In this document: in pieces, positions 53,092-55,761 of the stretch
Numbering within the stretch: the first letter of the stretch is position 1
Layout: every line of letters begins with the position of its first letter
Assembly (NCBI GenBank): GCA_964016885.1
Contig: OZ024741.1
Location: 303,180,001 to 303,244,000, forward strand
Origin: Eledone cirrhosa
Taxonomy: Eukaryota
Reading direction: 5' to 3'
DNA length: 64,000 nucleotides
Notes under the pieces: generated by a model
Databases searched by the model: none
Told to the model about the DNA's origin: nothing
Seen by the model: only the letters and a program-made list of their open reading frames with translations
Translations under genes and position numbers: made by a program

Positions 53092-53685
53092 AACATAAAT
53101 ATATACATACACATATATACATATACATAAATATATACATATATATAAATATATACATACACATATATACATATACATAAATATATACATATATATAAAT
53201 ATATACATACACATATATACATATACATAAATATATACATACACATATATACATATACATAAATATATACAAAAATATAAATATATACATACACATATAT
53301 ACATATACATAAATATATACATATATATACATACATATATATATACATAAATATATATAGATATATATATACATAAATATACATATATATATGCATAAAT
53401 ATATATATATATGCATAAATATATAAATGTAAGTATGCATGTATACGTACATACATATATGTATACAGACGTACAGTAGCATGCACATATATATATATAT
53501 ATATACATATATACATACATATGCATACAGGTACACATACATATATGCACGTATCAGTTTAGCGGCGCTAACGTCGCTTTGTTCGTTTGTAAACAAACTG
53601 AACAGCCTGAATTTATGCCATACGGTGTTAAGGCAACCACGTCACCTTTTTTTTTTTTTTTTTTTTGGTTCAACACTGACACAGG

Positions 53686-53730
53686 AACGATGTACTAGTT
53701 TCAAGCTTGTTAGCTATCATCAGCACCGTT
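53686..53730 (-). ncRNA. Minimal type I hammerhead ribozyme, unit 1
   Basis: AACGGTG-CTGATGA-T AGCT AACA AGCT T-GAAA-CTAG-TA-CATCGTT: 7-bp stem I and a 1-bp stem III with palindromic CTAG loop. Confidence 0.85.
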
Positions 53731-53803
53731 TACCCATCTGCCAGATAGTTGAACGTTCGAAAGTATATACTTTCCTTATGAAAATTAACGGCTGAGCAGC
53801 CTA

Positions 53804-53811
53804 ATTTGCAT
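53804..53811 (-). promoter_or_regulatory. Octamer motif ATGCAAAT (also at 54270-77 and 54736-43)
   Basis: Perfect POU octamer about 75 nt upstream of each HHR on the ribozyme strand. Confidence 0.35.
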
Positions 53812-54151
53812 ATTGAGTGAGTTAAATCGGTCAGGCATACCGAAAACGATAAATTGAAACAAAATGAAAACGAAATTTCATTTCTCACTCTTAGTATGGC
53901 ACTTACTTAAATGTAAGTATGCATGTATACGTACATACATATATGTATACAGACGTACAGTAGCATGCACATATATATATATATATACATATATACATAC
54001 ATATGCATACAGGTACACATACATATATGCACGTATCAGTTTAGCGGCGCTAACGTCGCTTTGTTCGTTTGTAAACAAACTGAACAGCCTGAATTTATGC
54101 CATACGGTGTTAAGGCAACCACGTCACCTTTTTGTTCAACACTGACACAGG

Positions 54152-54196
54152 AACGATGTACTAGTTTCAAGCTTGTTAGCTATCATCAGCACCGTT
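54152..54196 (-). ncRNA. Minimal type I hammerhead ribozyme, unit 2
   Basis: Identical to unit 1. Confidence 0.85.
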
Positions 54197-54617
54197 TACC
54201 CATCTGCCAGATAGTTGAACGTTCGAAAGTATATACTTTCCTTATGAAAATTAACGGCTGAGCAGCCTAATTTGCATATTGAGTGAGTTAAATCGGTCAG
54301 GCATACCGAAAACGATAAATTGAAACAAAATGAAAACGAAATTTCATTTCTCACTCTTAGTATGGCACTTACTTAAATGTAAGTATGCATGTATACGTAC
54401 ATACATATATGTATACAGACGTACAGTAGCATGCACATATATATATATATATACATATATACATACATATGCATACAGGTACACATACATATATGCACGT
54501 ATCAGTTTAGCGGCGCTAACGTCGCTTTGTTCGTTTGTAAACAAACTGAACAGCCTGAATTTATGCCATACGGTGTTAAGGCAACCACGTCACCTTTTTG
54601 TTCAACACTGACACAGG

Positions 54618-54662
54618 AACGATGTACTAGTTTCAAGCTTGTTAGCTATCATCAGCACCGTT
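54618..54662 (-). ncRNA. Minimal type I hammerhead ribozyme, unit 3
   Basis: Identical to unit 1. Confidence 0.85.
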
Positions 54663-55761
54663 TACCCATCTGCCAGATAGTTGAACGTTCGAAAGTATAT
54701 ACTTTCCTTATGAAAATTAACGGCTGAGCAGCCTAATTTGCATATTGAGTGAGTTAAATCGGTCAGGCATACCGAAAACGATAAATTGAAACAAAATGAA
54801 AACGAAATTTCATTTCTCACTCTTAGTATGGCACTTACTTAAATGTAAGTATGCATGTATACGTACATACATATATATATATGCATAAATATATATATAT
54901 ATACATAAATATATTTATATACATAAATATATTTATATACATATACATAAATATATATACATAAATATATATATATATATACATACATATATATATATAT
55001 ATACATAACTATATATATATATATACATACATATATATATATATATATATACATAACTATATATATATATATACATAAATATATATATATATACATAAAT
55101 ATATATATATATACATAAATATATATATATACATAAATAGATATATGCATAAATATATATATATACATAAATATATATATGTATATATACATAAATATAT
55201 ATATATATACATAAATATATATATATATATATATATACATAAATATATATATATATATACATAAATATATATATATATATACATAAATATATATATATAT
55301 ATACATAAATATATATATATATATACATAAATATATATATATATATACATAAATATATATATATATATACATAAATGTATATATATATATACATAAATAT
55401 ATATAGATATATACATAAATATATATATAAACATAAATATATATATATATATACATAAATATATATATATATATACATAAATATATATATATATATACAT
55501 AAATATATATATATACATAAATATATATATATATGTACACACAAATATACATATATATACATAAATATACATAAATATATATATATATACATATATATAT
55601 ACATGAATATGACGGCAGCTAGTAAACAAGGACCCACACCCCACCCTCCCGCACCAAAATTAGACTTATCGTCCCCTACTTTTGCTCTTTACTCTCTTTA
55701 CTCTTTGTTCTTGAATGTTTGGTTGGTAGAGTCCATAACACAAAATGAAACCCCTTTTATA

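Follow-up and report, generated by a model that had tools for sequence, protein, structure and literature searches.

Hammerhead ribozymes repeated in tandem on one strand raise the question of what kind of sequence carries them and how it reached its present position. In the window, i.e., the whole 64-kb stretch of Eledone cirrhosa DNA analysed here, such an array lies within a long degenerate (TA)n tract. Judged from its sequence, the locus is a recent insertion that belongs to a non-LTR retrozyme family of high copy number, and it is highly probable that this retrozyme-type family is moved by the machinery of Penelope-like elements (PLEs).

TRF assigned the array a period of 466 bp with 3.1 copies and a match of 98% (53424–54881), and on the minus strand the C of the CUGAUGA motif recurs at 54655, 54189 and 53723, with a spacing of exactly 466 bp. 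A sequence-only reading had described three tandem units plus a partial one, each with an identical minus-strand type I hammerhead and without a credible open reading frame, and all of this was borne out: the longest frames in the unit comprise 48 amino acids in sense and 112 in antisense direction, and both run through its TA tract. The insertion as a whole (53426..54870, minus strand) is a single arm of about 3.07 head-to-tail units. When monomer numbering starts at the cut site, its 5' start lies near position 215–221, i.e., it is 5'-truncated, with TA microhomology, and its 3' end, joined to degenerate (TA)n at 53424..53428 (minus strand), corresponds to the short 3' end of the family at position 248–251. 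The first predicted cut-to-cut monomer (54159..54624, minus strand), a candidate circRNA of 466 nt, carries the master haplotype of the youngest subfamily, and the second (53693..54158, minus strand) is identical to it. The leftmost unit measures 483 bp and differs by a private variant, a T20 run (53647–53666) plus one extra G (together 53647..53667, plus strand), and by one extra TA; the pattern of T20 and extra G was found at two places genome-wide. Each unit has less than 50% GC, arrays of the family span 1–17 units, and none of them has the unique central region of an LTR-type layout.

The internal TA-rich tract (54389..54500, minus strand) is predicted to fold as a long hairpin and differs in length between insertions. 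It also serves as a target for other elements, which were found inserted within it at L001:1720-2030 and L116:1720-2750; the retrozyme thus brings its own target along. The array is bordered precisely by a direct repeat of up to 25 bp (53401–53425 and 54871–54895), which had been interpreted as a target site duplication (TSD). The repeat is real, and its two copies (53401..53425 and 54871..54895, plus strand, 23–25 bp) are plausible candidates for a TSD at this array because their G-variant is rare in the flanking satellite, where it occurs in 2 of 10 units on the left and 2 of 28 on the right. As a general feature of the family a TSD is ruled out, since unique sequence was duplicated in none of 20 other single-arm insertions, six of which gave TA-type matches only. 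Very long degenerate TA tracts (8–9 kb; window positions 21495–29899 and 54867–64000) are studded with short mobile-element fragments. Rfam matches to miRNAs in the window all stayed below the gathering score and were rejected as noise from TA tracts.

A descriptor for type I hammerheads with at least 4 bp in helix I and at least 3 bp in helix II matched exactly three sites in the 64-kb window, all of them in the array, and 20 block-wise shuffles gave one match in total. A complete type I hammerhead is thus present in all three units. Including their extended helix I, the three domains occupy 54600..54686 (core 54618–54662, predicted cut 54625/54624), 54134..54220 (core 54152–54196) and 53668..53754 (core 53686–53730, predicted cut 53693/53692), all on the minus strand; in the second, the cut is predicted between 54159 and 54158, after GUA, which we take from hammerhead numbering. 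Rfam returned only Hammerhead_HH9, in two of the three copies and with 18.5 bits (E 0.5), and because this score is below the gathering threshold of 52 the hammerhead is not a formal Rfam member.

Proximal helix I consists of six conserved pairs, whereas the seventh (A-U) pair of the 7-bp stem proposed earlier is specific to the lineage of the window. Past a small internal loop, helix I continues with 4+6+7 more pairs that are kept across subfamilies, so the ribozyme had to be reclassified: in its modelled layout it is a full-length rather than the 'minimal' type I hammerhead assumed before. Helix II comprises four pairs above a U.U mismatch at its base. Helix III, located ahead of the GUA site, is limited to one pair with a palindromic tetraloop, and its predicted energy is −4.8 kcal/mol as a dimer duplex versus +5.0 kcal/mol as a hairpin, in keeping with the dimer-type helix III suggested by the sequence-only reading. 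The ribozyme therefore unites two weak features, the 1-bp helix III and the U.U at helix II.

Folding predictions for the circular monomer yielded a minimum free energy of −152.4 kcal/mol as compared to −106 ± 5 kcal/mol for shuffled sequences (z −9.1; z −5.7 without the TA tract), and the opposite strand is predicted to fold 39 kcal/mol weaker than the hammerhead strand. The predicted structure contains a long-range helix (54359..54571, minus strand) that pairs 54563–54571 with 54359–54367 and shows two double-sided changes between lineages. Covariation was evaluated on 17 representatives of 48 distinct segments that are 82–99% identical to the window. In this alignment, 95.5% of the cells are paired, compared to 31–39% in slid controls, and 22 cells in six pairs change on both sides; neither value was reached in any of 500 shuffles. 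The number of pairs with double changes (six, with 4.5 expected) was equalled or exceeded in 85 of the 500 shuffles. The double changes include a swap of G.U to U.G in helix I and two pairs in the long-range helix. Conservation of the core in alignment A1 is partly built in by the pattern used for selection. Overall, covariation appears to lend moderate support to the fold, resting on few events.

The proposal that a retrozyme-type repeat is dispersed throughout the genome was confirmed by searching 3.0 Gb, in which the 32-nt core has 10,672 exact matches (control: 0). A sister subfamily with a unit of 422–430 bp accounts for 11,878 pattern matches, and with little overlap between the two sets, the hammerhead matches add up to more than about 20,000. 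The two subfamilies are about 18% apart, and both use the same two 3' end sites. A marker of the window's own subfamily matched 4,476 times, often in arrays of 3–19 matches, and a segment of about 245 nt from the window's units shows no substitution relative to units at other loci, which indicates that this lineage is very young. A third, more diverged lineage with 75–83% identity was noticed at L072:900-1476 and at L148; in the L072 copy a position within the GAAA core is changed. Of six sequencing runs, four were covered. Thousands of independent contigs from one of them (X2) carry variants of the unit at great depth, as would genomic DNA of the same or a close species, and in three further runs (X1, X5 and X6, library type unspecified) one to six contigs carry the unit, mostly at low depth. 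The locus is one young copy among many thousands of an abundant non-coding repeat.

The most informative property of the family is the way in which its copies end. Landmarks were mapped in 197 arms at 109 loci, and nearly all of these loci lie within the first 110 Mb of contig C1. The 3' ends fall at monomer position ~245–251 (short) or ~305–310 (long), about 60 nt apart: 83 arms are short and 86 are long (169 in total), 27 are broken elsewhere (in 14 of them, beyond the landmark for the internal TA tract), and one lies at the edge of its locus. Within the stretch read, (TA)3 was met at 158 of the 169 short or long ends, which agrees with the earlier idea of insertion into (TA)n. The expectation that other arrays would have permuted ends did not hold, since the 3' ends are fixed at two sites and only the 5' ends are scattered. 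Among 68 head-to-head pairs at the 109 loci, 46 combine a short with a long end, two are short+short, none is long+long, and 20 have one broken arm; short+long thus accounts for 46 of the 48 classifiable pairs, and both exceptions are interrupted by adjacent sequence. An additional six long inverted arrays, selected by length, all pair short with long. At L180, the same unique sequence lies on either side of an inverted insertion and reads outward in each flank, i.e., the target is duplicated in inverted orientation.

The stretch between two internal start sites of reverse transcription is known as the PLE tail and has been called unique to PLEs (Frangieh et al. 2024, PMC11167929). The two-end, short+long pattern is the PLE 'tail' signature, and in the window the corresponding segment from short to long 3' site lies at 54315..54376 (minus strand), with more copies at 53849–53910 and 54781–54842. 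Hallmarks of PLEs described elsewhere are 5' truncation, partial tandems, 5'-inverted copies and a tail at one end (Craig et al. 2021, 10.1101/2021.04.23.441226), and those expected of a non-autonomous PLE, namely two 3' ends, a tail at one end, 5' truncation, a 5'-inverted copy and a microsatellite target, were all found. The suggestion that Penelope-like machinery was involved has thereby gained a basis in the ends of 169 of the 197 arms and in the pairing of 46 out of 48 pairs.

Autonomous PLEs reside in the same genome. Several families combine reverse transcriptase (RT) and GIY-YIG nuclease, with open frames of up to 938 and 1096 amino acids, and their proteins have named bivalve relatives at about 50% identity, which makes a mollusc the probable host; the size of the genome, its richness in TA and a SINE of octopod type would suggest a cephalopod. 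These families carry a CX4CxxC motif before the nuclease, which marks Neptune and Nematis (Craig et al. 2021), and by this motif they would be classed as Neptune/Nematis-type. These families end in (TA)n, their two-end tails measure about 65, 38, 48 and 40 nt, and inverted copies pair short with long in all three cases inspected (L063, L066 and L073). The unit is linked to PLEs because two internal 3' ends and short+long pairing are also seen in these PLEs of the genome itself; the link is an insertion footprint, and no pLTR homology was found among the 48 loci and seven family 3' regions compared. In one PLE family, the hammerhead shares its U.U mismatch and palindromic loop with that of the unit. 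In the 3' regions of three abundant Neptune/Nematis-type families (L061, L076 and L078) the palindromic helix III loop is kept and the catalytic cores are degenerate; these families spread despite their degenerate cores.

As to the partner, the unit is not a terminal repeat of a PLE at any of 48 GIY-YIG loci (150 of 10,595 candidates scored). BLASTN matches of the unit at two of these loci (L055 and L072) proved to be separate neighbouring insertions and were rejected as partner homology, and in a local alignment of the unit to the 3' regions of seven PLE families the best score was reached by 8 of 100 shuffles. The tail length nearest to that of the unit is the one of about 65 nt in the family of L061, which we take as a hint only. 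From the sequences, the partner PLE as well as cleavage and expression of the unit are to be regarded as candidates only. A truncated 3' end of the L064/L073 PLE family, with a hammerhead-like motif and a short end, lies in (TA)n in the window itself (61640–61810, minus strand). Short head-to-head copies of another small element sit in TA tracts at 14950–15110, 39090–39280 and 48520–48660; this element has a CUGAUGA...GAAA hammerhead-like core that fails the descriptor, and it also occurs beside L066 and L076. More inverted or single short elements with hammerhead-like cores and a long helix II region are present at 50640–51030, 52590–52900 and 56200–56390, one of them directly to the left of the array's TA tract.

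Which template the RT copies is indicated by the sequence around the cut site. The 25 nt after the cut are present in 15,100 copies, and in 14,177 of these the 8 nt before the cut are kept, i.e., at least 94% show read-through. The first 100 copies contained ten exceptions, nine of them point mutants and one beginning at the cut, and one start at the cut per 100 copies is about what random truncation gives. Run-off copying of a cut linear monomer, which should produce many copies beginning at position 1, is thus rejected. As the RT reads through the cut in nearly all copies, the template is either a ligated circle or an uncut multimer. Some insertions fix variants of their own in every unit and in both arms, and this favours a circular monomer: at L219, one private substitution and one TA haplotype (476-bp unit) occur in all units of both arms, at L186 three substitutions occur in all units of the array, and L220, L224, L225 and L229 likewise carry insertion-wide variants. 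This evidence is not decisive, since local duplication can also homogenise arrays, and L181 (ABAB), L180 and L221 do contain local two-unit or multi-unit duplications. Distances within arrays are lower than between arrays for L108, L117, L198 and L202, but not for L079, L115, L187 and L204. An inverted insertion with 3 + 14 full units (L222; G000:C1:69577400-69587300) mixes units of 454, 458, 466 and 468 bp in both arms, with the 458-bp variant and one substitution scattered through both. Such scattered variants in both arms are not predicted from a single monomer circle and count against it; a heteromultimeric template, template switching or gene conversion could account for the mix. The array in the window cannot decide between circle and multimer because it carries the master haplotype. 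Considering these patterns together, we regard a circular template as rather likely.

The sequence of events would then be as follows. The array would be transcribed on the hammerhead strand, and the hammerheads would cut after GUA, probably in pairs via the palindromic helix III, to release 466-nt monomers, which a host ligase of the RtcB type may circularise, as concluded from the account of related elements in PMC7229834. The RT and GIY-YIG endonuclease of a Neptune/Nematis-type PLE would do the copying: the protein would nick (TA)n and prime cDNA synthesis internally, at two fixed start sites, which lie ~250 and ~310 nt downstream of the cut and are separated by about 60 nt; these end positions are observed and the enzyme is presumed. 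Repeated passage of the RT across the cleavage junction, followed by variable stops, would generate head-to-tail units, a step for which read-through and scattered 5' ends are observed and the circle is postulated. Often the opposite target strand would prime a second cDNA at the other of the two sites, and the head-to-head insertions with one short and one long end that are observed would result. Later changes of the arrays would be due to TA slippage and local duplication, both of which are seen. This whole chain, the circular template included, appears reasonably probable to us, and we hold it to be slightly better than an even chance that the junctions record a PLE RT starting at two fixed sites on a ribozyme-made circle, rolling around it, once per target strand.

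The closest competitor retains the PLE-driven family and replaces the circle by a linear transcript that reads through a parent array and stays uncut. In this case the hammerhead would be slow or dispensable, no circle would form, and the unit would represent a multi-unit non-autonomous PLE like MRC1 of Chlamydomonas. Variants that are fixed in all units and both arms would under these circumstances require a one-unit bottleneck somewhere in the lineage, and the hammerhead with its extended helix I is kept between subfamilies about 18% apart, with change at the free core position 7 and the G.U to U.G swap in helix I. We therefore consider an uncut template possible, though unlikely. In the anole PLE, hammerhead mutants were without effect on insertion in vitro (PMC11167929). 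This result, like the spread of the three PLE families with degenerate cores and the two weak features of the ribozyme, counts against the chain proposed above.

Less probable still is that most of the tandem units were formed once a PLE terminal-repeat remnant had been inserted, through unequal crossing-over, as in the satellite model of a 2026 preprint. The local duplications in L181, L180 and L221 are of the kind that such a process would leave behind, but it would have to produce inverted arms that are multimeric on either side and have private variants in common, short arrays dispersed in their thousands, and arrays of 1 to 17 units that every time end at the same two sites, and it would have to start from a terminal repeat that was not encountered at the 48 PLE loci, the copies near L055 and L072 being separate insertions; we judge it improbable. 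LINE fragments adjoin some copies (L014 and L120), and 5' inversion also arises with L1 twin priming, so that mobilisation by a non-PLE LINE (RTE, CR1 or R4/Dong) targeting TA repeats was considered as well; the copies have neither poly(A) nor a LINE-type 3' end, and their two internal 3' ends, paired short+long, correspond to the PLE tail, a feature that the literature assigns to PLEs alone, which makes a LINE very improbable. Two identical monomers embedded in long low-complexity DNA might finally point to an assembly artefact or a chance motif. The third unit differs, more than 10,000 copies have stereotyped ends, and many unit variants occur on the independent contigs of run X2, so that this explanation has a negligible chance of being correct. 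Mobilisation by PLE machinery remains the reading that we prefer.

The family shares its basic design with the metazoan non-LTR retrozymes (Cervera and de la Pena 2020, PMC7229834), among which newt satellite 2, axolotl Rtz_331 and Rtz_353 and the 350–390-bp repeats of mussels were compared: a tandem unit of low GC content that encodes no protein and contains a single type I hammerhead, dispersed copies in the thousands, a highly self-paired predicted circle and co-occurring PLEs. All the properties looked for in the genome, i.e., tandem arrangement, hammerhead, non-coding nature, dispersal and predicted self-pairing, were found. The unit size had been thought unusual; consensus lengths reported for retrozymes range from 51 to 972 bp, and 466 bp is not. 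The unit has the helix III of the axolotl HHR_Amex1 and the U.U at the base of helix II of HHR_Amex2 and, unlike the axolotl ribozymes, joins both weak features in one ribozyme. Cleavage of the axolotl ribozymes reaches 6% and 22% for monomers and is far more efficient for dimers (PMC7229834), and in Xenopus one of nine predicted retrozyme dimers was cleaved (10.64898/2026.07.22.740005). In contrast to known metazoan retrozymes, the 466-bp unit contains an internal TA hairpin, and the description of metazoan retrozymes in the parts of PMC7229834 covered here includes neither 3' ends fixed at two sites nor a (TA)n target nor 5'-inverted arms. With canonical EN+ PLEs of the Neptune/Nematis type, the family has in common tandem and 5'-inverted copies, 5' truncation, a tail at one end, AT-rich or microsatellite targets and a hammerhead upstream of the 3' ends; it differs from them in lacking an open reading frame, in a tail of about 60 nt instead of 30–40 nt, and in the extended helix I of its hammerhead, which is minimal in theirs.

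Animal retrozymes have been described before; the family adds a new member to them, and the locus does not represent a new kind of element. In the parts of the retrozyme literature consulted, PLEs are 'strong candidates' for mobilisation and the mechanisms 'remain to be elucidated'. The case made for Xenopus by Li, Clavereau and Pollet (2026, 10.64898/2026.07.22.740005) is built, in the parts covered here, on co-occurrence and pLTR homology, as opposed to the insertion footprint presented here, and the main text of that paper mentions neither 'tail' nor 'junction'. The literature searched, which leaves most subscription papers and Repbase outside, contained no report of the unit family or of PLE tails on retrozymes, nor one that brings hammerhead ribozymes together with cephalopods, tandem repeats and circular RNA. 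Relatives of the family, or data on junctions, may be contained in the supplements of PMC7229834 and 10.64898/2026.07.22.740005. A 2026 repeat annotation of Octopus vulgaris does not mention 'ribozyme' in the part covered.

As far as this literature search reaches, the family would be the first retrozyme reported for cephalopods, and with its very young subfamily among the more than 20,000 hammerhead matches it constitutes a large repeat class and a possible source of circRNA. It offers a countable footprint, consisting of two RT start sites, short+long pairing, read-through of the cut and insertion-wide variants, and this junction evidence makes the open question of retrozyme mobilisation directly testable. 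If our reading is true, a mechanism that has only been proposed in the retrozyme literature is recorded in the junctions of this family. A single genome provides the RNA substrate, its start sites, the target and, encoded in long open reading frames, the candidate enzymes, and it would thus become testable which enzyme moves animal retrozymes and whether it does so via circles.
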